A stretch of DNA of 63,141 nucleotides, filler included, from Stramenopiles sp. TOSAG23-6 (GCA_900128565.1; 10 parts of 10 records of this genome joined end to end with filler, not necessarily neighbours in it), one strand, 5' to 3'. Shown: positions 7,644 through 53,352, counted from the first letter of the whole stretch. A program made the numbers and translations. Notes: generated from the letters alone by a model not told the origin.

Positions 7644-7771
7644 NTTTTTTTTTTTTTTTTTTTTTTTTGTTAGGTATAAAAATTTACTACAAAATTAAAT
7701 CAAATTTTCGTATTACTACGTACTACGTAGTATACGATTTCTAAAGTTGAATTTATTTATATTCTAAATAG

Positions 7772-15188: not shown

Positions 15189-15288
15189 NNNNNNNNNNNN
15201 NNNNNNNNNNNNNNNNNNNNNNNNNNNNNNNNTTAATTAATTAANNNNNNNNNNNNNNNNNNNNNNNNNNNNNNNNNNNNNNNNNNNN

Positions 15289-16400
15289 TCAGCTATTGCA
15301 GTCACTAACTCTCCTTTGTCATCAAGTGTAGCATGTACTGTGATGAAACTCGCCAAGAAATCTTTTAGATTGTACGAATGAATTCTCCAATAAAGCGAGT
15401 GCCTTTCCGAATTTATTTGTCCTGTAGTAACATTGCGCTAAATTATTAGCCAAAACTAAGGAAAATTCAGGTGTTGTGAAAAAATATTTTGAGAAAAAAA
15501 AATCGTCAAAGAGGAATTTTCTATAAAAAAAATAAATTTGAAAATTGTTATGAAAATGTACAGTATCTGTAGTTTTTGCAAACAATTTTTCAAAGACCTC
15601 TGTCGCTTTTTCAAGCTCATCAAGTCGCACGTATTGTGAAAAATATTTTTTTTTAAATTCGTTAGGTACAAAATTTTCATAGCAAAGATAATAAATTAAA
15701 AATTAAAGCGGACAGCATACAAATACAAACATCCAATTGTACTGAGTACAGAATCATCAATGGGTTCAGTTAGATCTATATTTTTTGCAACTTCAGATGC
15801 GCGTTCGTATAAATTCAAATCCATCAGTACTAGAATTTTACGTTGCAGACACTGGAGCATATTTGTTTTATGAGATTTATTTGGAAAATTTGTGTAAAAT
15901 TCGTGCGCTTGTTCCAACAAAGGTAAAGCCTCCTCGGAGGAACCTAATTGATAAAGAGCTCCTGCTACATCCGTTGCAGCACTCGCAATACAACTTTCGG
16001 GTCCTCCTTCGGTTTCGTATATAGTAACGATGGATGGGTATTTAGCTCTATCAGGGTTATTAGGTTCGGAGACCATTGTATAGTATTCTTGTGCTAGCTT
16101 AAGATTGAGATGGCCTGTGTACCTCTGGTGACAAATAGTGCAACGCGTCCACATACTAGCATTATATTTTGCTGCCTCAAGAATACACGAGATGTGGACA
16201 AATCCCGAACTTCCACGGCATGCACAGCCTCTATCTAGTTTTCCCCCGTTGCTACCCTCGTGACAAATGTAACACGAAGCATCTGTATTTTTTGCATCAA
16301 CAGAATTACGAGTATTTTCCATTTCTATATCCTCTTTCCTCAACTGTAAGTCATCATTTTCAGCTTCCGGTTTCAATTTGCTTTCACACTTGACTGTCAT
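15289..16400 (-). CDS. RING-variant (RING-CH) plus TPR protein, 3' truncated; introns 15629-15720 and 15469-15561
   Basis: CYICHE..RGCACRGSSGFVHISC..CTIC, followed by TPR-like helices. Confidence 0.8.
15469..15561 (-). mobile_element. Family intron (GT..CT)
   Basis: GAT ACT|GTACAT...TTTGAC...AAATATTTTTTCACAACACCT|GAA TTT; CT duplicated at both ends; 93 nt, in frame without a stop. Confidence 0.6.
15629..15720 (-). mobile_element. Family intron (GT..GT)
   Basis: TAT TT|GTATGC...TACCTAAC...CACAATACGT|G CGA CTT restores the TPR frame LYLRLDELEKA. Confidence 0.7.
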
Positions 16401-16707
16401 TTTTTAATAAATATAGTTAGTCTTGAATAATCTCAAAATCGATGTATTGCATATACATCCTTACGTATGACAACTGTAGACTGCTGCAGCCTGCATGAGT
16501 CATGACAGTGTACTATCTTGACACGTGGTTCGCAACCGTTTAAACTGGCGACCGTTAAAAAAGAATTTTGCCTATAGCTAGTATTCCATATGAATAACTA
16601 TAAGAACAAAAATAGTACAATCTTGTGCGTACGACTTGCCTATCTAGCAAAGAGTCTTCTTTTTGCACACGCACACGTAGAGTACCAAATAGTAAGCTGA
16701 ACTTGAA

Positions 16708-19010
16708 ATGTCTGGGTGTGTTACAAAGAGCTCTAGTGCGTCTACGAAACTCCAAATTTCACCTTGTAAGCGAGAAATTCGTGCTAAACGTATATTTCAT
16801 CTTCTGCAGTATAAAACAACAGGAAAATCAAAGACTTTGCTTAATAAAGAAGATATACATTCCCTAGTGACTCAAATGGGTCGTAATCCAAGAAAGAGGA
16901 AAAGAACAAAAATTTTGAGGAGCAAGAATAATATTGACACTTTATTTTCCAACATTGGGGAAAGAAATAAAATTGGTGTGACTTTTCCAGAGTTTTTTGA
17001 GTGGTTCACTCGGGAATATCCAACTTGTATAAACGACATTAAGAAACACATTCGCTTTCTTTTCGATGGTTTGGACAGAGAACATATAGGAACGTTATCT
17101 AGAGAAGATATCCAAAAATTAACAAAAAAGATAGTAATAAATATGAAGACGATTTTTAGTGGAAAAGAAAAGTTTAAGCTTGAACTACAAGATAAGAATA
17201 AGAAGTTATGTTATGACAATGACAGTCGCGTTTCATTTCATGTTTTTTTCACTTGGTTTGAAAAAACTATTCTTGAGCAAGTTTTATCTGGAAAATTACA
17301 AAATCGTGAGTTTGGAGAAATATTCATTGCTTCTGCCACTTCAAAAGCAAAAGAAGTTGATGAAAAATTAAAATTGAAGATGGAAAAACACCGAAATAAT
17401 AGTGCTACTATAATCCAGTCTATGGCGAGAAAACGCTCACGAAAAATCATGGTTGAAAAACGAAAAAGACGCTTGATATTGGAAGCAGCTCAAAAGCATA
17501 GATTAGAAATTCAGCGTCGTATACGTGGATTTGTTGTGTTACAGTCATTATTTAGAGGTATTAATGCAAGGAAACAGTATACACTCTTAGCTGAGGAGCA
17601 TAAGAGACATAAGAGAAAACAGCTGATTGTGTTACAGTCATTATTTAGAGGCATCAATGCAAGGAAACAGTATAAACTCTTAGCTGAGGAGCATAAGAGA
17701 CAACAGCTGATGAAATATAAAAAAGCGCAAAAAGAAAAATGTCTTAGACTCAAGCAAAGAAAGGCTGCTATACAATATTTAAAAGTACAAAAATCAAAGT
17801 CAAAGGCTGCTATAAAATTACAATCAAAGTCAAAGGCTGCTATAAAATTACAATCATTCTGTAGAAGTATTTTTGCTCGAAAGCATAAAAATGCAGCTCT
17901 AAAGATACAATCATTATTTAGAGGTACTTACGCTCGGAAGCGGAATGCATTATTAGCTATATTGAAATACTCAAATGGTTTAAATTCTATTCATGAAAAG
18001 GATGAGTACATGAAATTATTATTGGGTGTCAATACATTCAACAAAATAGAAAAAGATTTTGTACAAAAACTTGAAAAAAGTAGAAAAACAAAAACAAACA
18101 CAATAAAAATAAGTCAATTGTGCAAAGATTTTAAAACTATCCAGGATCGTAATAAATCAATAAAGACAAGCATGTTTGATTCTTCGATAATGAATCAGTC
18201 TAAGGAAGACTTTCGCGTATCATTAAATATGTTGTGTAAAAATTATAAGACTAGTCCTTTGAAACAAAAAAGTTTATTGGTTCTTGCAATTTCAAAATGC
18301 CTGGCGAAGTGTAGATATGAAAAGGCTCATTCTGTTTCACGACGGCTTTACATAGAAGCAGACGCAAAACAATCACGGCTCGAAGAATCTAAAAGAATTG
18401 AAGATAAATTACACAAATTACGATGTATGGCTGCACATCCAAAGACTTCTCCTAAATCTAGAAAGATTCTTGAACAAATTGAACAAAGGGAAGGAAGTTC
18501 GACTCGCAAAATTAGTCCTTTTGGTCATCGATTACATCAGCATGGTGAGCAACGATCCCTTGCTATAGCTGCTAAAAGGCAGAAAATATTAGATCAATAT
18601 GAAGTAAAAATGGCAGAAGTTTGTACATGTATGTTGTATTTAAATTTATTTTTTTTCAATTTCAAAAAAAATATTCATTATTTTTAGAAAATTTTGTGCC
18701 TAACAAAAAAATTAAATTTGACATATTTTCTCAAAATATATTTAGTCCAAAAACAAATCATACAATAAAACGCGAGAAAGCCAAGCTTTGTAAAAACACA
18801 AATAGAACGAAACAAAATGGTATAAGTCACAAAGAAAAGCAACATTGGTCAGAACGCCTATCACCCTCACAAGAAAGTATTGGAATATTACTAGATAAAC
18901 GTGCAGAAGATGCACGTCAAATTCAAATGAAATCTTGTACATTTCAACCAGATATCTCAAAGTCAATGGAATCTCTAAAAAATAACAGATATTTAAATTT
19001 TTCAAAATAA
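16708..19010 (+). CDS. EF-hand plus multiple IQ-motif protein; intron 18629-18741
   Basis: Degenerate EF-hands, repeated LQSLFRG.NARK IQ motifs, CTFxP repeats. Confidence 0.75.
18629..18741 (+). mobile_element. Family intron (GT..AT)
   Basis: ACA T|GTATGT...GCCTAAC...CAAAATATAT|TT AGT CCA gives CTFSPK, matching the later CTFQPD repeat; the nearby AG gives a stop within a few codons. Confidence 0.75.
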
Positions 19011-19045
19011 ACATTTTTTTCAAAATAATCAAATGATCTCTGTTT

Positions 19046-19107
19046 GTCTCTCTATCTGTCTCTCTATCTGTCTCTCTATCTGTCTCTCTATCTGTCTCTC
19101 TATCTCT
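19046..19107 (+). repeat. (GTCTCTCTATCT)n minisatellite
   Basis: About five tandem 12-mers. Confidence 0.9.
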
Positions 19108-19148
19108 GATTAGAAAATATTTGTGAGATTCTTCGACATTCAAACTTA

Positions 19149-19220
19149 ACCGCGGTGGTGTAGTGGTAATCATATTCGCTTCCCAAGCGAATGCCCCGGG
19201 TTCGATTCCCGGTCGTGGTA
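19149..19220 (+). tRNA. tRNA-Gly(CCC)
   Basis: Cloverleaf: acceptor ACCGCGG/TCGTGGT, D-loop AGTGGT, anticodon arm TTCGC-TTCCCAA-GCGAA, T-arm CCGGG-TTCGATT-CCCGG. Confidence 0.9.
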
Positions 19221-19332
19221 GATTTTAATCTAAACATTTTCCCCGGGTTCGATTCCCGGCCGTGGTACTTTCTGTTACATACATTTTCTTTAAACAAAAT
19301 TTTTCAACGATTTTTATAATATTATGTTCGAT

Positions 19333-20604
19333 TTAATTTAAAAGTCTTTTTTGTGAAATATCTGGTGAAACAGCTTCTTCTGAGAAGATACTCAAACTTG
19401 CAGCTCTCATACCAAATTCAACACTCTCATACAATTTATTACCATTTGCAAGCATATAAACAGTTGCACCAGCTAAAGTATCACCTGCACCCGTACAATT
19501 AACTATATCTTTCGCAATAGTTTGTGGAGATATTTTATGTACTTTCAAAACTTCATTCGTGACAGAATCAAGTATTGTGAAAAAATATTTAAAAAAAAAT
19601 CGTTAGGTACGAAATTTCGTATGAAAAACAAAAAAAGTTAAAAATTAAGGTGAAAAAAATCAAGGGTTAAAACGTACAATAGTTGGTTTTGCTGATACTA
19701 TAAAAACTCCTTTTGATCCTCTTGTCACTATAATATGTTTGAATTTTGCTTTACCTTCTCCTACTTTCATATTTTTTATGACTGTAGCTGCTAAATTAAT
19801 AATGTCGTCTTCAGTGACATTTTTGTAATCTGTTTTTGCATCAATATCGCGATTATGAATTGCATCCACAATGGAACATATATTATGAAAAAGTATTTTA
19901 GAAATTTGATTTGTTTGTTAGATACTATATGTACTACAAAACAAAATTGAAATGAATGATAAAAGCATACACATGTATTTTGGAAAAATATTTCAAAAAA
20001 AAAACTGAAATTTGTTAGGTACAAAATTTCGTACGAAAAAAATATTTAGACAAAAAATTGAAAAAAAAAACATACAATTCTTCAACATTAGGAGATAAGT
20101 ATGTAAGTTGTCGACAAGACAATAACCCATTAGACACTGCAAATATTGTGAAAAATATTTTTTTTTTTTTGGATAATAAAAAAAATCATTAGATGCAAAA
20201 TGTACTACGAAACAAAAAACAAAAACATAACAAAACATTTTGAAAACGCACACGGTGTGCCTTTGGTACAGATGTAGATTCAAACCAAATCAAAGGTTTA
20301 TTTCCCATATTTCCCATATTTCGAATATCCGATTTTGTTTTATCAGATTTTGTTTTATCAGATTCGTCTTCAACACAAATTGTGAATAATTCTTGCATCG
20401 TATTTCTTGATAAATTTCCATCTAAAACGACAATGTATATTGAAAAATATTTCAAAATATTTTTTAATTTGTTATGAGTCAAATTTTCATAGTAAAAACA
20501 AAAAAAAATAAAATTGAAAATAATGGAAAACGTATATACTAGATGCTTTAATGGAAGATTCAAACGATCTGATGTCTGAACTGCTCAACGTTTCTAGGAC
20601 CTGC
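19333..20604 (-). CDS. PfkB-family kinase (pseudouridine-kinase-like), C-terminal part; introns 20433-20535, 20141-20251, 19973-20075, 19878-19970, 19570-19677
   Basis: Spliced product: IVVLDGNL..WFESTSVPKAHR..YLSPNVEEL..IIVTRGSKGV..IVNCTGAGDTLAG. Confidence 0.8.
19570..19677 (-). mobile_element. Family intron (GT..TT)
   Basis: ACT ATT|GTACGT...TACCTAAC...CACAATACTT|GAT TCT; TT duplicated at both ends. Confidence 0.7.
19878..20075 (-). mobile_element. Two tandem family introns (19973-20075 and 19878-19970) separated by a 2-nt exon at 19971-19972
   Basis: GAA TT|GTATGT..ACAT|GT|GTATGC..ATAT|GT TCC gives PNVEELCS; each intron has its own CTAAC. Confidence 0.7.
20433..20535 (-). mobile_element. 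Family intron (AT..AT)
   Basis: AGT AT|ATACGT...ATACAT|T GTC GTT TTA GAT GGA AAT gives SIVVLDGNL. Confidence 0.7.
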
Positions 20605-20704
20605 ATGTATTTTGGAAAAATATTTCAAAAAAAAAAAACTGAAATTTGTTAGGTACAAAATTTTTATAAAAAAAAAATTCATACAAAAAAAAAATAAAAC
20701 ATAC

Positions 20705-22596
20705 ATGGATACTAGTTTTTCTCTTTTAATTGATTTTGGCCAAACAAGAGATACAATTTGAACAACAATTTTTGCCATGACACGTGGCATTACAGTATTC
20801 GTTTTTCGTGTAAAGGTAGGAATTCCAATAGACGCTAACCCTAGAGATTGTTCAGGTATTGGTTCGTTACCAGGTACAACATTATCCATTGCAGTGTGTA
20901 TTGTGAAAAAATATTTAAAAAAAAATCTAAAAAAATCNTNAGNTACAAANTTNGTACGAAAAAAAAAATTTACTCAAAAAAAAAAAAATATTTGAAATGT
21001 ATCATTGAAACAAACAGTACAAGCTGAAATAAATAATGATAATGCGGAAGAAATATCATCCCAATAAAATGAAAGAATACTTCGGATCGTTTTCATTTTT
21101 TCATGTTTTTCATGTTTTTCATGTTTTTCGTTTGTTTTGTGTTTTTCGTGTGTTTCCTTTTTTTCGTTCTCGACACAAACCTGTTGAATAGGTAGAGAAA
21201 GTTGTGTAGTGCCTCCAGTGGTATATACAACTGACTTTATAACATTATACAAACAGTCAAGTGCAAATTTAGCTTGAATTGTAAATGGTTCCCGGGTCCC
21301 TCGAAGTAAAGGCAGGATGTATTTTAAAAAAATATTTCAAAATTTACTAAAAAAATTTTTTTTGTTAGATACAAAAATTTCAAAAAAAAAAAAAAACTTT
21401 TTTGTTTTTTTGTTTTTTTGTTTTCTATGAAAATTTTGTATAAAAAAATAAAACATATATAATATTTTGCATCGCAAAATCAAATTTATATTTTGCAATG
21501 ACAACAACAAATGCAATACAAGGTGGTACATCTTCATTTTTACTCATATCTTTCGAATTTTTTGATAAAAAAGAATTATATGTATATGAATACGGATTAT
21601 CGACATTAGGGTTAGGGTTTGTCGAATACATTTCAACATCAAAAACGTCAAAAAAATTACAAACATCAATCCAATAAGTAGGGTTAGGGTTTTTAAAGTT
21701 TTTAAGGTTTTTAAGATTTTGGTTCACATCTATGATATTGTTCAAAAGTATACTTGTTGGAATATTTTTGAAATTATCAAAATGAATATTATCTAAAAAA
21801 TTAGACAATAGATTAAATGTAGAAGGAAGATATTGTGAAAAAATATTTTTTTTGTTTTTTGTTAGGTACAAAATTTCGTACGAAAAAACAAAAATGAAAA
21901 AAAAATATTTTTTTTTGATTTTTTTTTGTTAGGTACAAAATTTCGTACGAAAACCAAAAAAAAAAAATTAGGCAAAAAATATAATGAAAACGTACACAAT
22001 CACTGTTTTACTCAAATGTCTGCTTTTATCTTTTATTTCCTTGGATGTGGCTCGAGAAAGTAATACAGAATTTTGTACTATCGGACAATATTTCAAATTG
22101 TTTTTTTTAAATTAGGCTTACGTACGAAATTTCGTATGAAAAAAGTTTGAAATTTTGAAATTTTTTTTTTTTTCAAAAAAAAAAATGATGTATAATTTCA
22201 AAACAATTTCATTTTGAAAAAAAAAAAATTGTAAGAAAATTTTCATAGAAAACATAATTTGAAAACAATTTTAACTTTTGAAATGTTAGATGATTCTAAA
22301 AATACATATATATATATATTGAATATATATATTGAATATATATATTGAATATATATATTGAAATGTATGCAATCATGATAATAGAAACAAAACGTACAAC
22401 TATTGGTTGCAAAATTTTTAACACAGTCTGCCCAGGATTAGGGTTAGGGTTAGTAATGCATTTTGAAAATCGAATCAACATTTCTGAAATTAAAGTTGTT
22501 ATACAAGTTAGTGTTACTTCTCGATACTTCATATGTTTTTTATATACATTAAGAAGTGGTTTTATTATTGTTGATAGAGACGTTGTCCAGCCATCC
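20705..22596 (-). CDS. Fragmented multi-exon hypothetical gene with family introns (20605-20704, 21317-21458 AT..AT, 21828-21995 GT..CT, others); may be mis-joined to the PfkB gene
   Basis: Open exon frames join across 21317-21458 and 21828-21995; no recognisable domain. Confidence 0.45.
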
Positions 22597-22653
22597 TATA
22601 GAATTTAAAAAAAAGTCCAAAAAAAAATAGGGTTAGGTATAAAATTTTCTATG

Positions 22654-22688
<35 letters not shown>

Positions 22689-22924
22689 TTTAAAAATTTT
22701 TAAAAAAAAAAAAAAATTTTTTTTTTTTAGGTAAAAAATTTTATAAAAAAAAAAATTAAACAAAAAATTAAAAAAAAAAAAAAAAAAAAAAAAAGTTTTT
22801 TTTTGTTAGGTACAATATTTACTATNNNNNNNNNNNNNNNNNNNNNNNNNNNNNNNNNNNNNNNNNNNNTTAATTAATTAANNNNNNNNNNNNNNNNNNN
22901 NNNNNNNNNNNNNNNNNNNNNNNN

Positions 22925-25900
22925 NCGGGTAAAACTGGCGAATATTATCTTCAGCACAGTTGGGGTCTTTATGCTGGTGTTGCTCCTCAAGCGGATTGCT
23001 TTACTATTAAATCGAAAACACATGGCCTTTGGTGGCCTGCAATTTCTACATCAAATTTTTCAAGTGAAGTATTCATCCGTTTTGGAATTAAAGGCAGTCG
23101 TGTTTCAATAGCATTAGCACCAGACGAAACAATAGAAAACGGAGGATACACAACATCACATTGCCCCAGGGGTTATCAGGTACACCAAACAATGCCTTTA
23201 TGTTGCCAAGGAAATTGTATCACAAAATGTGATCAGAATAATATCAAGTGTGCAAAGGAGGTATGCGCCTTAGATGTATTGTATGTGTGGGATAATCCTG
23301 TAAAAGAATGCGATACACTCGAAATAGTGAAACAAACTGAAAGGATTCAACTAAGTGATGGTCCATGGTCCAACGAAGGGCTTCTATCAGCACTACTTGT
23401 AACAGAAAATAATAGTAGTAATGCTCCCAAATGGTACCCGGTATGTTATAACGTTAGTGAAATAGTAGTAAAAAATACGGCAACTGTTGCTTGTCGCAAC
23501 CTTGGTTTTGATGGGCTGCAAGAGTATATAATGAAAAATAAAAATGAAGAGAAAAATAATGGAAAACTTATAAATATTAATTGCCAAGGAAATGAAAACA
23601 GTCTTCAAGAATGTACCATACATGGAAAAAGTGAATGTCAAACAAACCGACAGTTATGGATTAAGTGTCAATCGCTATATAGAAACACACTTGACGAAAT
23701 GTATAAATTCTCTATTGATTCACACACTTACAAAATGTCGAAATATAATAAAGGTATGGTGCAATTGTTAGATGAAAAAGTAAATGCATCAGAAACATTG
23801 GTTAATTCGAGCATCTTCTCGTGGTTTTGGATCTCTTTGAAAAAGAAAGAAAACCAGTTAAATATAAATTTTGGAAAAGGTTTAGACAAAGGGGAAAATG
23901 TACTATTGAAACACGAAGAAAATTTAACTCAATCAATAGACTTCAGTCGCATTCTTGTGCAAGCTTCAGATGCATCTCAAGCAAACTTTATAATTTGTAA
24001 AGAACCATTACTTTGTGATAAAACTCCAAAAGTTGGCTCGACTCACCCGGAAAATGCAGTATCAATCAATTCAACTGAAATAGCACATGGAAGCAAGGAA
24101 CAGATCTCAATAATTAACGAGTCAATTTGTAATATTTATGGCTCTTGTTATAATCCATGGTATGGGGGTCCTAAATGCTTTAAACCGTCAAAGAAACCAG
24201 AGGTCGATGATCATGGAGAATTTCGTTTTAAATCACCAATTGTAGAAAGTATATTATCTCCAAAACCAGTCGAACAAACAAATGTCACAATGAAATTAAT
24301 ACCAACTTCAAAGGAAAGCGAATATACTTGGACTTTGCAATATGTAGGTAGAGCGTTGACATTTCCCCCCAAAGAAAACTGGTCGCCTACTTTAGACCAA
24401 ATTATGAGTGATGTTGCAAAAGCATCACCTAAGGATAAAGAATATTTTCTTGCTGGACAAGCGAAACTTTATGAATATTCATCATTCCTCCGTAACGTAA
24501 CAACTCTAGAAAAAGATTATGAAAAACTTAGAGACGAAGCGCAGAATGCAACTCGAATATTCGATGGATTATTGTCAAACTCAACATTGGCACATTCAAA
24601 ACCATTGACTTCGGAAGCTGGTGTATCACGATTAAAACAAACTGATGCCAACGATTTATGTGCTACTGGAGCAATAGATTATACTTCATATGGTCCTAAA
24701 TGTGTGAAAGCGTTCATCAATGGAAAGTCATGTATTTCTTTGTCTATAATTAATAGTAATCTTTTATCATGTATAGTTCCAGCTGGAACGGGTAAAGATA
24801 TGAAAGTCAGCGTTTCATCAGATAATCAAAGCAATACGAATGCAAACGTAACACTTGCATATGACAGACCTAAAATAGATTCTATATATCCATCGAATTC
24901 GCCCGTCTTGGGAGGAACAACTTTACATGTATCTGGATCTAATTTTGGAGATCCATCGACCAATATCACTCTGAATTTATACATTAGAGGTAAGCCATGC
25001 ATTTCAACGATCCATATTTCGGATACAGTAGCAAAATGTATTGTACCACCCAATATTGGAAAAGGGGCAATCGTTACTGCTACAGTGAATAAACAAACGT
25101 CAGAAAGCAAGGTCTATCTTACATATAATAATCCAAGAATTGATTCTGTAGAACCACCAATTATGTCTACAAAAGGTGGCGAACTTTTAATTACAGGAAT
25201 AAATTTTGGATTTATGAATCATACAAAATCCAAAAACAATAATTCTCTTGTAGTGGAATTTGTCAGTGACGGAGATAGTTCATTTCGTGGATCTTGTTCG
25301 AACATAAAATGGAAAACGGATGGGGCAATTACATGCACAGCCCCGCCAATACAGTCTTTAAAACGTATTGATGGAAATCTTTCAATAGTTGTCAAGGTGT
25401 GTTACCCGAATAATTCAGACAAATCAAATTGTTTGGGCTCATTGAGATATAAGATTGAATATCAGGGTCCAACAGTCAAAAGTGTTAGCCCTAGTGTTAT
25501 GGATACAATAGGCGGTAAGCCCTTGGAAATACATGGGGAAAATTTTAGTGAAAATTTGGATGCTTTATTTATTGGTACTAACAGATGCTTAAAAAACAAT
25601 ATAGTATATATAAACCCCCAATTAGTGCGATGCACAAAAGTACCACCCGGGGTAGGATCTGATTTAAATGTTCAAGTTCTTATTCGTGGTAGAGCATCAG
25701 TCCAAAATAATTTTTTTAGTTATGCCTCTCCAACTGTAACAAAGGTTATCGTCGACAATAATTCTATTTGGGGNCCTCCNCCCGCCGGTGCATTTTATCG
25801 AGATCATATAGATATCGGAATAAAATATCATATTAAAGTTTACGGTAAAAACTTTGGACACAGTAAGAATTCTCAAAATGTTTTAATAAATGGGGTACCT

Positions 25901-27081
25901 TGTACAGCGACTATCTGGTATTCAGATAACCTTCTCTGGTGTACGTTTTCACAATGAATTCATATATTTTTTGTACCAAATTTTGTCATTAACGATTTTC
26001 GATTTTTTTTTTTTTGTGCATTACATGTTTGGCGCCTCGAGCTAATGGATTTAATCTAGCCACTCAAGTTGAAGTTGGTAATCAAATTTCGCAACCACTT
26101 AAGAAAATTTGCGATGACAATACTCCTGATAAAAAGGCCAAAAATGATAAATGTCAATTTTCGGTATCATACGATCCGCCAATTATTACTCGATTGGACG
26201 CAACGGATTTAAATAGTAACGGAGGCATAATTGAAGTATATGGGTATAATTTAGATATGAACTATATAAAAATGGGATATATCGGAAAGATAAAGCTAGT
26301 AACGACTCACTGTAAAACTCAAGATAAATCCAAAACAAAAAGTTACAACAAAATGTGTTTTTCGGCACCCAAGGGTGTGGAAGTAAATGAACCAATATCA
26401 CTCCGTGTTGAATGGGTCGATGTTGTACAAAAAAAAAAGAAGTTTCGGGTATTTTCTCAAGTTCCAAAATTTTCCCCTCAGTTTATAGGCTGCTATCCAG
26501 GATGCAATACTAACTCTCAAATTCTGAAGAATATTAAAAGAACAACTGTATACAATCAGAGTCTAATAAATTGCAATAAGATTTGCAATAAACTTGAAAA
26601 TGATGGCAATGTTGTGTATCCTTTTATGAGTGTGATAAAACTAACACCTGGAGAAAGTGGAGTTGCACAAGCTACTGTTACAGAAGACGGACGTCCATTG
26701 AAAGATGCATCGAAAGGTAAGCAAAATGACAACCAAATTAAAACGGCTGATGGAGTATTTGAATGTGATTGTTTTGCTACTATCGGTGATTTTCCGATCT
26801 CATGTGGACAGGATTGTAATCAACCGCTTTATAGTAACAATGTCAGATTGTCAAACTTAAATCAACCTTTATTAATGTCTGCAGGGAATGATGTAAGTTC
26901 AAACCGCATGGGAATTAGTCTAGAAGAAGTTTGTAGAATATTAAATTCATTGAACCTCTTTACCGCAAAGCAGATAAAATTTCTTTCGACGCCAGGAAAT
27001 ATCTGCTCTAAAGATAAGACATATAAACCTCCGAGTGTGTCATCTGTGAAAGGTGCTATCAATATTTCTGTATCTAAATAG
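22925..27081 (+). CDS. Large extracellular protein with SRCR and multiple IPT/TIG domains (5' truncated); intron 25941-26026
   Basis: SRCR: W.PVC..ATVACRNLGF..INCQGNENSLQEC; repeated P.I.S..P...GG..L.I.G.NFG IPT motifs. Confidence 0.85.
25941..26026 (+). mobile_element. Family intron (GT..AT)
   Basis: TGG T|GTACGT...CATTAAC...TTACAT|GT TTG gives LLWCLAP; shifting both boundaries 2 nt upstream creates TGA. Confidence 0.75.
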
Positions 27082-27166
27082 AAAAAGAAATATGATAAAT
27101 ATATTTGGTTCCAGATATATATAATGGGAAACACTACAAAAAAATGTAAAATTTTCTTTATAAAAA

Positions 27167-29287: not shown

Positions 29288-29649
29288 GTGGACACTATAT
29301 CATGNNNNNNNNNNNNNNNNNNNNNACCAGACAAGCGCATAGAATACTAACAATAAAGAGCTGATCAGGTGACACAGAAACCTACAGTAAGTAAAGAACT
29401 TCTCAAAGGTAGTATTAGTACCATACAAATGAAGTGTAACTGTAATCTGATTTCTTCCTTCTTCTTTCCCATCGACAGCAGGTTTGTACTTTTTTTTTGC
29501 TTTTTTTTCTAATTTTCCCCCGACGGCGCGTCGACAATCCATTCAGTTTAAACTTTAAAAATTGTACCTGCCGTCTACCTGACCTGAAGTGAAGATTGTA
29601 CGAGCAAAGCAAGTAAAAACTCATCCTCAATTACGCATTATTGATTACA

Positions 29650-29801
29650 ATGAACAAATTTGTTATATTTACATTCTATTTACTCTTATCTTTGTTCAAC
29701 TTAACTATACTTGTGGAAGCAGCAACAAAACGATCTGCTGAAGGCCTAACTGGCGACGAGACTGCCCGACAACGACAACGACGGCAGCAACCGCAACAAC
29801 G

Positions 29802-29835
<34 letters not shown>

Positions 29836-30440
29836 CGACAACGTTTAATAACTGATGAGGAGGTAAAGATATACATCCAACAATTGAATAGTGTGAACTC
29901 TTATCAGTGTATGCCAAAATTTGTCCCTTTATTCTCAAACCGATTACGCCAAGGAGTATTTAACATGGCCCGCGCCACTCTCGAGGAGGTGGAGAGGGCA
30001 CTCATGATGGTCCCTTCAAATAGGGATGTATTCAGTAGAAATGAACAAATATTTGTGGAATTACAAGGTCTTTTGAAATGTCAACCAATTATGCGCCATC
30101 GTTCGTTAAATGCCCTTTATTTTTTAACAAAAGATCAAGCAAATGTTGTTCATATTATCCCAGAAAAAATATTTCAAGTTCTTTTTGAAGCTGTTGATGT
30201 TAATACCATAGCATCGGCACTTGGTTTACTTGCCAATGTTGCCACTCCTGGAAATGCCACTAAACTCGGTGACGCGGGTATTATTTCCACTATTGTAACA
30301 TTATTAAAGACACATCCACAATCTACTCTAATTGTACAAAATGCACTCAGTGTACTGAGCAAAATTGCCCACGAAAATCCCACAAACAAAATCAGGGTTG
30401 GTGAGGCAGACGATGCGATTTCCACTATTGTAACATCATT
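29650..30440 (+). CDS. Signal-peptide, polyQ, ARM-repeat protein (3' truncated)
   Basis: Hydrophobic N-terminus, (CAA)n tract, ARM-like AGIISTIV repeats. Confidence 0.7.
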
Positions 30441-30540
30441 NNNNNNNNNNNNNNNNNNNNNNNNNNNNNNNNNNNNNNNNNNNNTTAATTAATTAANNNN
30501 NNNNNNNNNNNNNNNNNNNNNNNNNNNNNNNNNNNNNNNN

Positions 30541-32467
30541 TTCATCAAGCATTTCTGTTTCATTGGGAGCAACTTGGGACACAGAAGCAGGTGTTCGTGG
30601 TAAAGTGGAAGGAATCAGAGATACTGAATTTCGTGTTTTGTGGGAAGATGGCAAAGATGAGTGGTACGATAGAAATGGTATTGCTACAAGTGCTGCTGAA
30701 GGAGAAAGACGTACACTTATATATGCGCTTCCTGCAATAGTTGCAACTATACCTAGAGATGAAGAAGATAAAATTATAGAAATGACACAAAAAGAAGCAG
30801 ATGCTATTCTTACGGGTACAGAAGCGAAGACTTCAAAAAAAGAGAAAAAATTCCGTGTTCCTAGTCTTTTCGTGTTTCGTCAATCTGCTGCTGGAGGTCG
30901 TGTTCTTCTACTGGAAGCAGTCAAACAGGAAGAAGTGTACTTGGAACATAGTCGCTCCCCATGGGCGGCGCAGGCATTAGAAGAACATCTTGGTTTATTT
31001 GATTTTAAAACTTCGTGGTCCAAAGCGCATTTTACAATTACTACGAGTAATGATCCTTCAAAGTGGTTATTTGGTCAGCGTCGTGATCGTAATCCCTTGT
31101 GTGAGGCTCTAGTATACAAAGATTACGTAGCGAACTTCTTAGGAGCTTTCCTATCAGAAAAAGTATTTCGTTGGGTAGTTAACCTTGGTGGTCTCTGCGA
31201 AGATTGTCGCACAAATCCACATTCCATTTGGTGTCGTGCAAAACATACTTGCAACAAAAAAACTGATGGTTTCAACGAATGCACCCTCTCTATCTCCCCA
31301 TTTGGTAATCCTTGTGTTGTCATCATTGAGAGTGGTACATCTCAAAAACGACCCAAAGAAGAAACAGAAGTAGCAGTGGAATATCACTTGACGCAAAATA
31401 TCAATCCAATGATGCTCTTCTCTATTGGTATTTTGGTAACTTCATTAGATTTTGAACTTGCTCGAAGTGAAGTTGTGCAGAGCATGTATCTTTTCAAAGT
31501 TAAATTTAAATTTTTTTTGTATGAAAAATTTGTAGCTAACAAAATATTTTTACTAAAACAAATATTTTTTCACAAAACATCGGATGTCTCTTTATTGGTG
31601 CTCTATATGTACCAATTTTTACTTTATATTATTCTTTGCGCTTAATCCTTGGTAGTTATGCACATACGGCAATATTATCCATGTTAATTACTGCCCTAGC
31701 CATGTGTTTTTTACACAATGAAATTTTATATGAAGCTCAAGAAATTTTTTTCCGATTTTGGAATTTTGTCCATATCATTGAAGATAGTTTAGTAGAAGGC
31801 CCGATGAAAAGTGTTCATGAAGGTATACATGGTATATTAGATATGTTTCATTTTGATTATCGAATGCCTCCTGGAATTCTTCTTGGACAGATGTATTTTT
31901 GGTTATCAGGGTTACTTTTACTGTTTTGCAGTCGATATGTTTGTTATCATTCTTTTTTTTTTTAGGATTTTTCTTTTTTCGTTAAAAAAAAAAATTGTAC
32001 CTAATGATTTTTTTACATCAAAAAAATATATATTCACAATACATGGACATGTTCCACATGAAATTTCATATTTAGGATTGTATTCTCTTGAACTAACAAT
32101 TAGTGTAGTTGGATTGTTTTTCCTTATTGATAGTATTTCTCATCCTCTGCTAGGTATCGTCGTATATTTAACTTTGAAGACCTGGCAAAGAACAGTTGAT
32201 CTCCATTATCAATTTCTTCTGTGGTGGCACTCAACACATCCATCTAAATATCGTCGATTGATCTCAGAAAAAGAGTTTGAAACACAAACGCAAAATAATA
32301 CTTATAAGGAGATGAATCGTCTTCGGAAGATGGTCTTGAAAAAACCTAGTCTTTTGCGGAAGCTCCCAATAGAACGCCGAAATGCGATGCTTTCTTTTAT
32401 TAATGGAAATAATTTTCACTATAAGACTGACGAACCAGAATCTGGAGGAAATTGTTTAATCAGTTAA
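30541..32467 (+). CDS. NEMP/TMEM194-like multi-pass membrane protein (5' truncated); introns 31486-31580 and 31939-32044
   Basis: RRLISEKEFETQTQNNTYKEMNRLRK is NEMP-like; TM helices join via two GT..AT introns. Confidence 0.65.
31486..31580 (+). mobile_element. Family intron (GT..AT)
   Basis: AGC AT|GTATCT...AGCTAAC...CACAAAACAT|C GGA joins the frame of ORF 31636. Confidence 0.7.
31939..32044 (+). mobile_element. Family intron (GT..AT)
   Basis: CGA TAT|GTTTGT...TACCTAAT...CACAATACAT|GGA CAT. Confidence 0.65.
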
Positions 32468-32718
32468 TGGACTGACATAAAAGCTATTGTTTTGATAAAT
32501 TTATTTGCAATTTATTTGTTTAAAAAAAATAAAAAAAAACTCACAAATTTGAAAACACGAAATATCCCAAATCGAAAATCGTGTATATTTTTTGAGATTC
32601 AGTGAGAAGTCAGACATCACAACAACTACAGTTAGGAGGAAGCACAATCAACCTACTGCTAGCTATACGTAGTCTACAGGTAGTAGTAGCCTTCTAATAA
32701 AATAGAGGCAACTGAATA

Positions 32719-33873
32719 ATGGGTAAAAAGGCAAAGGAAGCTCGTAAACGACGACGAGCCGCAGCGCGGGCAGGTATAATAGAAAGTCCCGCAAAGAAGC
32801 AATGCACTGCTAGAGCTTCAGACACGTTGGTGCGTCATCAGAGTTTACAAGTGTTCCCAGAGCGACGTGGTCGTCGTAGAAAGAAACGTGGTCGAAAAGC
32901 TGGACAAACACAGCTCATATCTAAATTTCATACAATTCAAAAAATAATGGCTCAACTACCGACTATGAAAGAATATAAAAATGACCCTGTAGCTCTAATG
33001 GAAAAGAAAAAGAGTCTGAATCTTGAGTTGGAAAAGCTTGGTGGTATTGAAGCATACCAGAGGGCAAGCATCCTGGGGGAGTCTAGTCAGTCGGAGTTTG
33101 AGTCATCTAGTTGGGTTCTTTCTGAGATAAGTAATAGATACTCCAATTTAGTAGATGATACAAAATTATCCGCTAATGAAAAAATATCTCTTCTTGATGT
33201 CGGTGCAATTGTAAATCATTATCCAGAAACGTTCTCAAAGTGGTCAAAGAAACAAACAGAAATACGAAATAAACTTGTTGTGACATCTATTGACTTGAAC
33301 GCCCAAGACGACGTAGTTATTCAAACAGATTTTTTTGATTTTGCGCAAAAATGTCTTGCAAATAGTCCACCGCGTCGATTTCATTGTATCGTGTTGTCAT
33401 TAGTTGTGAATTTTGTTGGTTCAGCAGCCAAAAGAGGCGAAATGTTAAGGTTAGCTTCATCATTATTGCGACCTTATGGATTGTTGTTTTTAGTTTTACC
33501 TAGCGCATGTATACAAAATAGTCGTTATATGAAGTATTCTAAAATAGTTAAAATATTGCGATCTATTGGTCTTCCACCTGCTGAAATGAGGGCAAACCCT
33601 AACCCTAGTGGTATCAGAAAAGAAGAAACTGATTTTGTCGATGTACTAGAGAAAAGTGCTATGAAAGGCGATGAAACTGAATCTACTAATAATTCTACTA
33701 ATTTCTCCAGTGAAACAAAATTCCAACATTGCGTCCAACTTGCTAAAAAATTATTCTTTGTAGTATGTCGCCGTAGTGACCTTCCTGAAGATGGTTATAT
33801 GACTTATCGGCCGTTTAAGCGTAAGTTGTGCCGTGGTGGAATTCATCGGAATAATTTTTCCATCACTTTATAA
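32719..33873 (+). CDS. BMT2: 25S rRNA adenine-N1 methyltransferase Bmt2-like
   Basis: LGGIEAYQRAS, LLDVGA, SIDLN, IVLSLVVNFV..RGEML, C..NSRY. Confidence 0.85.
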   Translation: MGKKAKEARKRRRAAARAGIIESPAKKQCTARASDTLVRHQSLQVFPERRGRRRKKRGRKAGQTQLISKFHTIQKIMAQLPTMKEYKNDPVALMEKKKSLNLELEKLGGIEAYQRASILGESSQSEFESSSWVLSEISNRYSNLVDDTKLSANEKISLLDVGAIVNHYPETFSKWSKKQTEIRNKLVVTSIDLNAQDDVVIQTDFFDFAQKCLANSPPRRFHCIVLSLVVNFVGSAAKRGEMLRLASSLLRPYGLLFLVLPSACIQNSRYMKYSKIVKILRSIGLPPAEMRANPNPSGIRKEETDFVDVLEKSAMKGDETESTNNSTNFSSETKFQHCVQLAKKLFFVVCRRSDLPEDGYMTYRPFKRKLCRGGIHRNNFSITL

Positions 33874-34034
33874 AGATTCATTCATTTCAAATTTATCTAT
33901 TTTTCATACGAAATTCTGTACCTAACGAATTTAAATCAAAATCGGAAAGCCGGATAATATTAACATTTTGGTAGTCATTTCTTGAGTTTTTTCTTTATAC
34001 CTACTAAAAGTGATTTTATTGATACGACAAGAAG

Positions 34035-35003
34035 ATGCCAAAGCGGCACTATGTCGCAAATTTCTTAACAAAGAAGCGCTCACGAATTATCAAAAGTAGT
34101 GTTCCCCCAACGTGTAGTCTAGAGCCAATTATATCCAACATGAAAGAGACTGTTAAAGTGCTGATATTAGGGACTCATCCTAGTCGCCAATCTCTTGCAG
34201 AAAAAAAATTTAGGGACGTTGACATAATAAGGCGTGGAGGAAGTGGTCCACAAAATTATGGCCACCCTCGCAACTCTTTTTGGATGATTGCTGGTTCAGC
34301 TTTAGGATTTTACAGACATCAGATACCATATGATAAACAATGTGATATATTCACTAGTAATGGGTATGCTCTCTGGGATGTTATACATAAATGCTCAGGT
34401 CCAGGATCGTTGGATTCAGATATTGATAGGAAAACAATGGTAGCCAATAAAATTCCAGAATTAGTAGTGAATTGTCCAAATTTGAATCGTATATGCTTAG
34501 CAAAGTCGTCCGCGGAACTTTTTAAACATAAAAATGGGCATAAAGACTGGCTCACCACTGGGAAGTTCGCAGGAACTCATTTTTCCTTTGTTATACGGAA
34601 AAAATCCCCGTCTGGTAATGCCACTTTAAAATCTTTCAAATCCTTCACCAAAAACAAAAATTCCGCAGTGACAGTCTCTCTGACAGAACTAGATTTTATG
34701 AATAAATTGTCATCAAGTACACCAGGAAATAGAGTAATTGAACTAGTTGTTGTACCGAGTACATCACCCGCTAATGCTATTCAAAGTCCTGCGGAAAAAG
34801 AAGTTGAATGGCATAAATCATGCTATAACCTAAAAGAACCTCCAATAACATACAAATGTGTTGCTTGTTGTAAAAATCACTGGTTTCAAGATTGCCAAAA
34901 TAAATATTTTTGGATGAAGAAACAAGAATCTAAAAGTAAATGTGATTTAAAAGATGAGGTGAATGGTGATCGTTGGTACTTTCGTAAACTATCTAAAAAA
35001 TAA
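34035..35003 (+). CDS. Uracil-DNA glycosylase superfamily protein (hypoxanthine/Mug-like) with a C-terminal zinc knuckle
   Basis: VLILGTHPS..SL, YGHPRNSFW, ALWDV..C..GSLDSDI, PSTSPAN; CVAC..HW..DC. Confidence 0.8.
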   Translation: MPKRHYVANFLTKKRSRIIKSSVPPTCSLEPIISNMKETVKVLILGTHPSRQSLAEKKFRDVDIIRRGGSGPQNYGHPRNSFWMIAGSALGFYRHQIPYDKQCDIFTSNGYALWDVIHKCSGPGSLDSDIDRKTMVANKIPELVVNCPNLNRICLAKSSAELFKHKNGHKDWLTTGKFAGTHFSFVIRKKSPSGNATLKSFKSFTKNKNSAVTVSLTELDFMNKLSSSTPGNRVIELVVVPSTSPANAIQSPAEKEVEWHKSCYNLKEPPITYKCVACCKNHWFQDCQNKYFWMKKQESKSKCDLKDEVNGDRWYFRKLSKK

Positions 35004-35034
35004 AAAAATAATAATATGAAAAATGAACAAGCTG

Positions 35035-35092
35035 AATACAATACAATACAATACAATACAATACAATACAATACAATACAATACAATACAAT
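35035..35092 (+). repeat. (AATAC)n microsatellite
   Basis: About 11 tandem copies. Confidence 0.95.
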
Positions 35093-35143
35093 ATATATAA
35101 AAATAAAGAAAAATTTTAAAATTTTAAATCATACATATACCTT

Positions 35144-36303
35144 TTATTTTCTCTGATTTCTCTGATGTCTCTTATTTTCAAGTGTGTCAAACCAACTCTT
35201 GATTTTATCATTTACAATTTTACCACGCACGGATTCAAAAAAGTTTTCAAGTTTGATGCCATGCAGTTCCTCATATTCATTAGCCTGGAGACACATTTCA
35301 AATTTATCAATATCTTTAACAAGTAGACCCTCTGCTGATGCTTTTAGTTCATATTCCCACCAAAGCTTGGCAATGCGACCACCAACTTTAGGACCAAGCA
35401 TGTTTTGTGAAAAAAAAAATTGGATAAAAATCATTAGGTACAAAATTCTCTATGAAAAAAAAAATACATTTGAAATTTAAATGGACAACGCACATCTTTT
35501 CTATTTTTTCAATTGTTATTTTCTCACGTCTGTGTTTTTCCTCTTTAGATATACCATCAAATGGGGTAATATCACCAACAACTGCTTCTGCAATGTCATG
35601 AACTAAAGCTATGAGAACACATTTTTCAATATTTACAGATTCACCTTTTTCATCTTTTTCGTTCAATGCAAAAGCCAATAATGCCATTCGATACATATGA
35701 TCAGCAACGGACTCGCAATCACCAAACTTTATACCACAGCGTAACCACCCCGATCTCTTTTGTAGCTTTAATAGACCAATTAGACGGCAATAATCGAGGA
35801 TATCAGTGCCAAGAGTAGGTTCCTTAAAGGTAGAAACAATATTATTTTTTTTACAACTACTTGGAGAAACTGAAAAATTCAAATCATTTGATTTGGTAGC
35901 AACTCTAGAAACAGAATGCCCGGCTGATACAACTTTAGCAATCGCGAGCTCAACGTCACTAATTTTAGTCAAAAAGTAGTCTGTAGACTCTGTATTCCCA
36001 ATTGCTTGGTACGTTTTGCTTGGAAGATCAATATCCTCAAGCAAAAGTGATAAACTAGACATTCTACCTTTTATTTTAGGATATGTCACCTTGAATGCAG
36101 ACCAGTCTGAATCAATGACATAATCAGAAGTATCTTCTTTCAAGCGTTCAGTAAAACAAGAAGGAAAAATTATTGAAAACCCATCTCCAGTACGTGTAAT
36201 TGATACAAAAGGAGTATCTAAACCAAGTAGCCATAGCGGTGGTACTGAACCTAAAGGAAGACTCGCAAATGATAAGACATCTTCCAAGAGCGTCAAATGC
36301 ATT
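35144..36303 (-). CDS. HDDC2: HD-domain 5'-deoxynucleotidase (HDDC2-like) with an N-terminal CASTOR/ACT-like region; intron 35400-35493
   Basis: LK..KRSGW..ESVADHMYRM..ALVHDIAEAVVGDITP..LWWEYE..VKDIDKFEM..QA.EYE; N-terminal FVSITRT.D.FSII. Confidence 0.85.
35400..35493 (-). mobile_element. Family intron (GT..AT)
   Basis: AAG AT|GTGCGT...TACCTAAT...CACAAAACAT|G CTT GGT restores the HD-domain frame; the next AG is out of phase. Confidence 0.8.
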
Positions 36304-36619
36304 GTTGATAGTGAATAAATAAGAAAAAATAATACGGTCTGTGCGAATTTGTTGAAAGAAAGAATTTTTTGAGATAACATTTTGAGAAGAACTTCAACTT
36401 GAACTGGCCTTGAACTGAAAATAAATACCGGTACCGGGTTCCCTAAAAGTTTAATCGCGATTAATTTTTTTGATGTTCTAGTTCACATCGACATGATGTC
36501 TTTTTTATACTTTTTGAAAAAACAGATGATCTCTATTCTATTTAGATTTGAATAATAAGCTTAATCCTGCTTCACGTATTGTCAAGGTTGATTGCTGTGT
36601 CTCTAATCAATTCTAAGTG

Positions 36620-37970
36620 ATGTCTTCGTCAGATGATTTGGCTCTTTTATCATGGGTAAATTCGCTAAGCTCCCTGCATGGTGAACCTGAAGCGACCTCG
36701 TTTTCGGACTTAAGTAGAGGATTACTTCTCTGCAAATTATTTGGAAACGTCACGGGAGAAGAGGATATGGTGAATGAGGTAAATGCTGCATTATCATCAT
36801 CGAACACAACTGAATGTTTCAAAGTCGTTACGAAAGGATTGGGTCGTCACTATGGCTGTAATTTTGACGATATTGAAGAACTTTTAACTTCAAATGGAAA
36901 CGATCAAGCTGACGCACTACGGGAATTGGTGCAGTTAATACTGGGTTGTGCTGTCCAAGGACCTCGTGCAGGTGAAATTGTCAATGGAATTATGTCACTT
37001 GCGAAACAAATCCAGACGCCATTGATGGTTGCAATTCAGGCTATTCAAGCAACATATGCTGGTAGTGAGTCTGAAACTGCTTCGGACGTTGATTCTGAAG
37101 CCGATGACTCTACTGAGATTTCTTTTGACATTTCAGTATCAGAACTGGATAAAGTTAAAACATCAGTAGATACAGTAAGTGACTCTGAAAATGATAAACC
37201 ATATTCTGTAGATGGTAATTCTAAAAATCAAAACATACCACAACAAAATTCAAAAAAATCTTCAACGATACTTCAAACACCAATCGAAAAAAAATCCAAT
37301 ACACTCAACCATGAAAGTAACGAAAAATCTCATAGTTTATCTTTACTAAAATCATCTGTATTTAGTAGTGAGATTACTACAGAATTGACCGAACAAGTTG
37401 ATTCGCTCACATCAGAAAACACCATTTTGCGACAACAAGTTGCAACTCTTTCAAAGACGTCCTTAGATGCAAAGCAAGAATTGGAAAGATTAAAACTCAA
37501 TCAAGAAAAAAAAGATAACATTGACCAAAGGTCACGAAATATAAAACAAAGTAAAGCTCTTGCTGAAATTATTTCTCGGGAAAAAACTCTTTTAAAGCAA
37601 CTTGAAGATTTGACACAAACAGTGAAACAAAAAGATGCTGAACTTTTTTCTTTGCGAGAAGAATGTGAAAGTACGAACCCTCTGTGCGTTTTTACAGTAT
37701 GAATTTTTTATAGTATGAATTTTTTATAGTATGATTTTTTTTTGGTACGAAATGTTCTACTTTACAATTTTATTTAATTTTTTTTTTTTTTTGGTTTTTG
37801 GTAGAAAATTCCGTACCTAACGAATTTCAAACTGTAAAACATATTTATTACAATACCTACGAAATGAAGTGGAGACACTAAGAGAAAATCTTGACGTTTT
37901 TCGAAGCCAGGCAGCTCGTTGTGCAAAGGCTGAAAGTCAAATAGCAAAGTATAAAGAAAGACTTGAGGAT
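36620..37970 (+). CDS. HOOK-like protein (CH domain plus coiled coil), 3' truncated; introns 37684-37858 and 37971 onward
   Basis: ALLSWVNS..FSDLSRG..L, LILGCAVQ..I..IMSL...Q..LM..IQ. Confidence 0.7.
37684..37858 (+). mobile_element. Family intron (GT..CT)
   Basis: CCT CT|GTGCGT...TACCTAAC...CAATACCT|A CGA AAT gives PLRNEVETLRENLD; CT duplicated at both ends. Confidence 0.7.
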
Positions 37971-38136
37971 GTATATTTTATTTTTTTTTTTTTGTATGAA
38001 TTTTTTTTTCGTACGAAATTTTGTACCTAACGAATTNNNNNNNNNNNNNNNNNNNNNNNNNNNNNNNNNNNNNNNNNNNNTTAATTAATTAANNNNNNNN
38101 NNNNNNNNNNNNNNNNNNNNNNNNNNNNNNNNNNNN

Positions 38137-53148: not shown

Positions 53149-53352
53149 ATGTATTTTGGAAAAATATTTCAAAAAAAATCGTTAGGTACAAAATTTCGTA
53201 CGANNNNNNNNNNNNNNNNNNNNNNNNNNNNNNNNNNNNNNNNNNNNTTAATTAATTAANNNNNNNNNNNNNNNNNNNNNNNNNNNNNNNNNNNNNNNNN
53301 NNNGAAATTTTGTACCTAACAAATTTCGAATTTAATTTTTTTTACAATACAT

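Follow-up and report, generated by a model that had tools for sequence, protein, structure and literature searches.

The introns in a 63,141-base stretch of DNA, referred to here as the window, raise the question of whether introns in unrelated genes can be copies of one mobile element whose 3' splice site is supplied by the duplicated insertion target instead of by AG. The window is not one locus; it comprises about ten contigs, from 7.5 kb down to 1.1 kb, and a name string makes an uncultured marine stramenopile from the MAST-3 group its most likely source. An earlier note on this DNA had proposed that a non-autonomous DNA transposon targeting NT dinucleotides creates these introns, and that their excision removes one of the two target copies. 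The explanation that we consider probable is an introner-type mobile element that bears the 5' splice site and the branch site, with the duplicated target acting as a non-AG 3' splice site.

One repeat family in the introns of unrelated genes

The recurring sequence was first brought out by repeat finding and a core-motif scan. All 19 complete introns that were checked by reading frame in the window are copies of one repeat family, 86-175 nt long, with a 5' GTAYG, a branch-site-like core (GTACCTAAC), a T-rich tract, and a 3' end of ATAC followed by two further bases. On the sense strand the parts follow each other as GTAYG, a T-rich stretch, TTTCGTACGAAATTTTGTACCTAAC, another T-rich stretch, and GAAATATTTTT(C)CA(C/A)AATAC plus two bases; the consensus of 18 introns aligned over their whole length reads GTATGTTTT..GTACCTAAC..GAAATATTTTTTCACAATACAT. 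The CTAAC motif, within TACCTAAC, sits about 40-50 nt before the 3' end, and the T-rich tract comes after it. The conserved blocks look like splicing signals (5' site, branch site and T-rich tract); GTATGT is a textbook 5' splice site. The earlier note had described the ends as GTAY..ATAC, forming a short inverted repeat, and this holds for the majority of the introns but more loosely than stated. Hand counts give GTAY starts in 12/19 introns, GTGC in 3/19, GTTT in 1/19 and ATAY in 3/19 (5' GT in 16/19), and ATAC as the four bases before the last two in 11/19; the constant inverted repeat, GTAT..ATAC, is 4 bp long and reaches about 7/9 matches when extended into T/A-rich sequence.

A profile built from the intron alignment (nhmmer) finds 31 copies in the 63-kb window and one copy, on a metagenome contig (L110), in 236 unrelated loci from public collections; these loci came from a metagenome scan for the core pattern (at least 116 loci, with L110 as the single real copy) and a scan of genome contigs for the 3'-end pattern (120 loci, none of them real). 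Introns in unrelated genes are alike from end to end, as introners are. The best pairwise identity is 85-93% for i01, i05, i08, i15 and i17, which lie in different genes, and 69-81% for the remaining introns. The mean pairwise identity is just 67%, in AT-rich sequence, and the most conserved blocks resemble a 5' site, a branch site and a pyrimidine tract; both observations would suit ordinary old introns of an intron-poor genome that look alike through their splice signals and AT-rich filler, with nothing mobile among them. We regard this as very unlikely, given that the 85-93% identity extends over whole introns, including the blocks outside the signals, between unrelated genes; a huge excess of sequencing depth, contig breaks at the copies, copies outside introns and the association between the flanks, all described below, point in the same direction.

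Two special intron classes were tried and rejected. RNA folding of eight introns lends no support to a structure-guided excision like that of euglenids or Amoebophrya; it yielded no significant structure (z from +0.7 to -2.3, below -2 in 1/8; the ends pair in 3/8 minimum-energy folds). U12-type (AT-AC) introns begin with a ATATCCTT-like sequence, and their branch site lies no more than about 10-20 nt from the 3' end; the present family, with its 5' consensus GTATGT and a CTAAC core about 40-50 nt from the 3' end, does not have the features of this class.

Duplicated flanks and the choice of splice register

For the frame test, donor and acceptor were set by coordinates, the flanks were joined, and the openness of the resulting open reading frame (ORF) was read. 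For 17 introns the joined frame has 25-80 open codons to either side; the remaining two, the adjacent i05 and i06, were checked through a spliced model of the pfkB gene. Spliced by coordinates at six element copies, this gene yields a 312-amino-acid protein that is colinear with its homologues (114 matches in a full HMMER search, 14 of them shown in the alignment). The alignment passes through the i08, i09 and i05/i06 junctions without indels; the ATG that spans i08 coincides with a Met conserved among pfkB homologues, and the IVVLDGN read across i09 agrees with the motif of the family. Among the six single pfkB exons submitted to Pfam, the last one alone was matched, and a word-based homologue search with this last exon found none. 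The open frames and the colinear protein would require that the introns be removed from the mRNA, which is indirect evidence for removal; they agree with the suggestion of the earlier note that excision together with loss of one target copy would leave the protein unchanged.

The flanks of the individual introns are given below with exon bases in lower case and intron ends in capitals. AT is found on both sides (AT/AT) in i01 (13277..13444, plus strand, aat-GTATGT..ATACAT-gcg), which contains two tandem element cores and interrupts its gene in phase 2 (open for 79/80 codons); in i20 (18629..18741, plus, cat-GTATGT..ATATAT-tta; phase 1, open 79/80); in the pfkB introns i08 (20605..20704, minus, cat-GTATGT..ATACAT-gca) and i09 (20433..20535, minus, tat-ATACGT..ATACAT-tgt); in i19 (21317..21458, minus, tat-ATATGT..ATACAT-cct), i11 (31486..31580, plus, cat-GTATCT..AAACAT-cgg), i12 (31939..32044, plus, tat-GTTTGT..ATACAT-gga), i13 (35400..35493, minus, gat-GTGCGT..AAACAT-gct), i17 (52408..52494, minus, gat-GTATTT..ATACAT-ttg) and i18 (54159..54258, plus, aat-ATATGT..ATATAT-gat); and in the L110 copy, which lies in another gene (cat-GTATGT..ATACAT-gg). 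Three of these introns, i09, i18 and i19, have A instead of G at +1, and their frames are still restored. The rarer flanks CT/CT occur in i03 (15469..15561, minus, act-GTACAT..ACACCT-gaa) and i14 (37684..37858, plus, tct-GTGCGT..ATACCT-acg), and TT/TT in the pfkB intron i04 (19570..19677, minus, att-GTACGT..ATACTT-gat), exactly where the earlier note had placed them.

The flanks differ in i02 (15629..15720, minus, ttt-GTATGC..ATACGT-gcg; TT vs GT, a mismatch at -2), in the pfkB intron i07 (20141..20251, minus, cgt-GTGCGT..ATATTT-gca; GT vs TT), in i10 (25941..26026, plus, ggt-GTACGT..TTACAT-gtt; GT vs AT) and in i15 (38381..38483, minus, att-GTATGT..ATACAT-gta; TT vs AT), as well as in i05 and i06, which occupy 19878..20075 on the minus strand as adjacent copies (19973-20075 and 19878-19970, flanks TT/AT and GT/AT) with the two nucleotides GT between them. 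Where the flanks differ, the intronic copy is usually AT, as the earlier note had also observed.

That the last two intron bases often copy the last two bases of the upstream exon, a further claim of the note, is borne out by the counts. In 20/20 introns (the 19 of the window and the L110 copy), T ends both the upstream exon and the intron, whereas T makes up 26.7% of the coding DNA in the window. At position -2, exon and intron agree in 14/20 cases (AT/AT 11, CT/CT 2, TT/TT 1), compared with a mean of 9.0 when the 3' letters are shuffled among the introns (p=0.003); without i05 and i06 the figure is 14/18 (p=0.0015). In the five introns whose -2 base is not A, the exon -2 base is never A either, and three of them are exact matches (C/C, C/C, T/T); the association of A and non-A at -2 has a one-sided Fisher p of about 0.008, calculated by hand. 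The dinucleotide association thus extends beyond the shared T; for the rarer dinucleotides it falls short of what the note implied, as introns with a non-A base on either side match in just 3/9 cases (p=0.21), and identity among them, resting on three cases, is only suggestive. Position -3 matches in 3/18 introns, and therefore the repeat comprises two bases and not three on the upstream side. On the downstream side, the first exon base is G in about 12/18 introns, which would also be compatible with a 3-base NTG duplication; by hand count this G follows 12/15 of the G-starting introns and 1/3 of the A-starting ones, where A occurs in 0/3, a difference that is not significant. The upstream exon ends in AT in 11/20 cases, against 8.7% AT in coding DNA, which amounts to a strong insertion-site preference, whatever the mechanism.

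Identical flanks fit two registers equally well, and the same elements could be cut differently, with the intron running from NT through GTAYG to ATAC; AT targets would then give AT..AC introns, and the 3' site would be a constant AC. All 14 introns with identical flanks are compatible with this cut, under which the copies with A at +1 (i09, i18, i19) would read AT..AC. The registers can be distinguished just where the flanks differ, that is, in i02, i05, i06, i07, i10 and i15. At i10 (25941) the alternative register, shifted by -2, produces TGA; at i07 (20251) it loses an Arg that aligns with Arg in 5/14 of the homologues shown. At i05/i06 (20075) the Leu that is kept when the upstream copy is exonic aligns with Leu in 6/14 homologues, and i02 and i15 are open in both registers. 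The rule of the earlier note that the upstream copy is the exonic one therefore has one firm support, at i10, and two weak ones. Considering also that the element's own GTATGT is a textbook 5' splice site, and that the family carries neither a U12-type 5' end nor a branch site near its 3' end, we find the AC-ending cut distinctly unlikely.

Nor can a canonical AG, as far as the sequence allows a judgement, stand in for the predicted 3' sites, because an in-frame AG lies within about 15 nt downstream in just 3/18 introns (i01, i10 and i15), and the nearby AG of i08 leads to a stop.

Proposed insertion and spread of the element

The mechanism that we propose starts from a short non-autonomous element, an introner of about 90-110 nt, that would have spread through the genes of its host and would now make up almost all of the host's introns. 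The element would bring along its own signals, namely the 5' site GTAYGT, the branch-site-like core TACCTAAC and the T-rich tract, and its insertion would duplicate a 2-base target, NT, in most cases AT. The spliceosome, probably the major one, would cut at the predicted sites, before the GT of the element and after the downstream copy of the duplication, and the 3' splice site would therefore be the target (AT, CT or TT) and not AG. With the element and one copy of the duplication excised, the coding sequence would read as it did before insertion.

Seawater metagenomes, in which a contig of the window is represented, bear on how abundant and how natural these copies are. Element bins reach a summed contig depth of 5,000-37,000, compared with 3-5 for the flanking exons (seawater DNA runs X3-X5), a figure that is not to be read as a copy number. 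Window contigs often end inside element copies, and metagenome contigs diverge from the i08 copy at 20706 (26 contigs, X3) and 20603 (12 contigs, X4), which are its AT-flanked ends. Intron i03 is spanned by DNA contigs of runs X3 and X4 with at least 31 letters on both sides, and it is therefore present in natural DNA and not an amplification artefact; a contig of run X5 extends just 13 letters past its 5' (high-coordinate) border. This evidence also bears on whether the copies might be excised from DNA in the manner of ciliate internal eliminated sequences (IES), or might have arisen during single-cell amplification or assembly. The IES of Paramecium are short, AT-rich, TA-bounded inserts in genes that are removed from the DNA with one repeat copy kept and without strand bias; their anatomy is similar in the 2-base direct repeat, the single retained copy and the short inverted ends, and an assembly that contains a chimeric join could harbour artefacts. 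The window copies, however, are all in sense orientation and carry spliceosomal signals, i03 and the L110 copy occur on independent metagenome contigs, and an element-free form of the DNA is absent among the joints listed. DNA-level excision and artefact together appear extremely unlikely.

A DNA-level origin may be judged by comparison with miniature inverted-repeat transposable elements (MITEs). The fixed-length target-site duplication of MITEs is present here as the 2-bp repeat, with two loci outside the register. Terminal inverted repeats of MITEs usually measure 10 bp or more, against the constant 4 bp of this family. Copies in both orientations and in non-genic DNA, also typical of MITEs, were not found, although the window consists almost entirely of genes and is a weak test for non-genic DNA. 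The transposon proposed in the earlier note is accordingly borne out in part, by the single repeat family and by a 2-base direct repeat above chance, and not as regards its enzymology and movement: no transposase was seen in the window, the inverted repeat is 4 bp, the copies are uniformly in sense orientation, and no empty site was seen (element-free DNA was absent among the joints listed, with 294 further joints outside that listing). Transposition at the DNA level would fit the proposed element, and the following points weigh against it or against the wider explanation of which it is part. All copies, 31/31, are in sense orientation to the neighbouring gene, which is a direct prediction of an RNA-based mechanism; a DNA transposon would need selection to produce it. 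The inverted repeat is weak, 4 bp within AT-rich sequence. No transposase family was found among 30 ORFs and six exons of the window, including the run of ORFs at 40256-43183, and the window contains no long copy of the element. Two of the five youngest copies (i05 and i15) have mismatched flanks, TT vs AT, and the match among rarer dinucleotides is limited, as stated above. The i05/i06 pair and one further copy (i16) misfit the simple register, and a third case (21830-22007) possibly does so too. The one RNA run examined (X7) contains no spliced joint, only joints from repeat to repeat, and one of its contigs, covering 20670-20815, crosses the 5' border of i08 unspliced. Finally, the sample is small, 19 introns from one fragmentary assembly and the L110 copy, and the assembly carries at least one chimeric join, in a kinase/SF3A2 ORF.

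The orientation, the 4-bp inverted repeat, the lack of a transposase in the window and the mismatched young flanks make an RNA-mediated route the main rival. Here, an excised intron would reverse-splice into other transcripts, mostly after T, and would be reverse-transcribed and recombined back into the genome, without a transposase or a true duplication. The location of all copies in or beside transcribed genes would follow, as would the constant ATACAT ends of the young copies i05 and i15 in spite of an upstream TT. Left unpredicted by this route are the introns ending in CT or TT that follow exons ending in CT or TT (i03, i14, i04), and the association of A and non-A between the flanks; truncated non-intronic copies after a stop codon (33883-33935) and upstream of a start codon (20897-20976), and the internal tandem duplications of the core (i01 and 61093-61288), also speak against it. 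On balance we consider the RNA-mediated route rather unlikely, and the introner with a duplicated NT target remains the explanation that we prefer.

Several copies were left out of the counts: i16, 21830-22007, 20897-20976, six copies that contig ends truncate, two partial copies outside introns, a GT-AG intron and a possible CA..AT intron. In its family register (atat-GTACG..ACAT), i16 (38645..38818, minus) fails to join two long ORFs, and the in-frame options are GTGTT..ACAT or GTACG..TACA; at 21830-22007 there is doubt about the upstream ORF, and by frame the cut would come 2 nt earlier. The i05/i06 pair, which is included in the counts, needs either a 2-nt micro-exon (GT) or a single intron ending 2 nt before the family position, with the same protein either way. 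The non-intronic copy upstream of the pfkB start codon (20897-20976, minus) contains isolated single N bases at 20938-20953; like those at 4632-4656, in a long coiled-coil ORF, these bases probably reflect masking or ambiguous base calls. Copies truncated at a contig end are a 5' part at 37970..38036 (plus, gat-GTATAT..) and those at 45725-45803 (minus), 53149-53203 (minus), 53304-53352 (plus), 60725-60779 (minus) and 60880-61000 (minus). Of the two partial copies, the one at 33883..33935 (plus) is non-intronic: it comes after the stop codon of a gene on the plus strand and has the same orientation as the genes on either side; the other lies at about 7645-7700 (minus). A kinase gene holds the single clear GT..AG intron that was seen (61093..61288, minus); this intron contains three tandem element cores with CTAAG instead of CTAAC, lacks the 3' end of the family, ends in a pyrimidine tract and AG, and has GTACG at both borders. 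The possible CA..AT intron lies near 61380-61510. Short interstitial telomere-like repeats (TTAGGG/CCCTAA) occur in the window at about 11490-11520 and about 61490-61510, and in L110 (reverse strand) at about 870-950; the repeat at 61.5 kb occupies the expected place of the element's 5' part in the possible CA..AT intron.

Host DNA and comparison with known systems

The contigs of the window are chained in descending order of length by linkers of the form N44-TTAATTAATTAA-N44 (7545-7644, 15189-15288, 22826-22925, 30441-30540, 38037-38136, 45625-45724, 53204-53303, 60780-60879 and 61961-62060), and genes on the two sides of a linker are not genomic neighbours. The G+C content (GC) of the window is 25-40%, and the contigs are gene-dense, with long ORFs packed on both strands. 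The encoded domains include SRCR, TIG, ankyrin, Myb, protein kinase, SF3A2, GINS PSF2, EF-hand and IQ domains, a flagellar C1a subunit, Bmt2 and pfkB. A tRNA gene (19149-19220, plus, 57 bits) stands between two protein genes and adjoins pfkB; it is the sole Rfam match in the window. Nine tandem units of 99 nt at 14315-15188 (minus) encode ankyrin repeats and continue up to the end of the contig. At 40256-43183 (plus), overlapping ORFs shift frame every few hundred bases without element copies; the first has a weak, below-cutoff Pfam match to DUF3452 (E 0.0008) and the other seven have none, and the region may be a decayed gene or the result of sequencing frameshifts.

In the ORF at 48883-50199 (plus), a protein kinase domain runs directly into SF3A2 at about 49597-49620. 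From PYFMRNHLG on, an independent assembly (P0171) has the identical sequence, but what precedes it there is a normal SF3A2 N-terminus; the join in the window therefore looks like a chimera formed at a short shared motif. A public gene model of this ORF (P0172) lacks four conserved in-frame stretches, conserved residues of the kinase among them, as though canonical introns had been imposed on sequence that has none. The SF3A2 search returned P0172, whose aligned blocks are all identical to the window ORF; its source name includes "MAST3", and it is this name string that makes a MAST-3 stramenopile the most likely host. Among the named PSF2 matches of the 56 listed there are no metazoans, and the best named ones are plants and algae.

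A literature search found no account linking introners or non-canonical splicing with MAST-3, with supplements, Henriet 2019 and Huff 2016 lying outside that search; among the matches listed, introners were not paired with Nanomonadea, Incisomonas or Solenicola, and the introner paper there concerned Amoebophrya. Non-canonical splicing is not a subject in the main texts of two papers on single-cell genomes of MAST lineages. Work by Huff in 2016 reportedly described introners in Micromonas pusilla, Aureococcus and further protists.

Introners with a target-site duplication are described as elements that provide one splice site while the duplication provides the other (PMC9860276; PMC11282704), and introner families as having canonical GT/AG (or GC/AG) ends, with duplications of 3-9 bp quoted in one of the papers (PMC9860276). 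The present family resembles introners in being a short non-coding repeat found as introns of unrelated genes, with a flanking duplication, one splice site each from element and target, and an aquatic protist as host; it differs in its 2-bp duplication, its non-AG 3' site (AT, CT, TT, GT), its 4-bp inverted repeat and its heterotrophic stramenopile host. Amoebophrya has repeated non-canonical introns with direct repeats over the exon/intron borders and no transposase inside, inverted repeats of 8-20 nt that form hairpins, direct repeats of 3-5 nt, no preferred end dinucleotides, and a gene GC of about 54-58% (PMC7789003). Repeated non-canonical introns with short direct repeats in a marine protist are common to both systems; the window introns, by contrast, have no significant RNA structure, a constant GT 5' end and 25-40% GC. 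The non-canonical introns of diplonemids are GC-rich and different (PMC12621601).

The larvaceans Fritillaria borealis and F. pellucida offer another comparison. Most of their introns are non-GT/AG, with a frequent 3' AT; the exonic YAY before the 5' site is repeated as the last intron bases, the upstream copy stays in the mRNA, and an origin from MITEs has been proposed (PMC13326754; PMC11282704). The window has in common with them predicted 3' sites other than AG that go back to a repeated exonic motif, with AT frequent among these sites. By hand count, 14/19 introns here end in a YAY triplet (CAT or TAT), and the upstream triplet is YAY in 7/19 (cat three times, tat four times). Fritillaria is an animal with 5' AG (AG/AC, AG/AT) and a 3-base repeat, whereas the introns described here have 5' GT in 16/19 cases, a 2-base repeat and one family that dominates and has a strong branch-site core. 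A Fritillaria-like larvacean as host, which the 3' AT and the published YAY triplets had suggested, was rejected in view of the PSF2 matches and the identity with P0172, by which the host is probably not a metazoan.

If the junctions hold, this system would offer a natural experiment on the selection of 3' splice sites in the absence of AG, and would show whether altered U2AF-type factors, such as those described in Fritillaria (PMC13326754), or a signal inside the element take over this role. It would also be a clean case of mobile elements that create introns with a duplicated target as splice site, and gene finders restricted to GT-AG would break or distort genes in such DNA. A broader proposal, to which we give slightly less than even chances, is that a free-living MAST-3-like stramenopile has derived nearly its whole intron set from one element, and that its major spliceosome routinely uses copied-target, non-AG 3' sites; if true, Fritillaria would be joined by a second, independent lineage with a genome-wide departure from GT-AG, and for a protist with a constant GT 5' end it would be the first such case. 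What sets the window apart from these known systems is the combination of a GT 5' end that stays constant, a repeat of two bases, an NT 3' end that varies and one dominant family, marked by its strong branch-site core, in a heterotrophic stramenopile.

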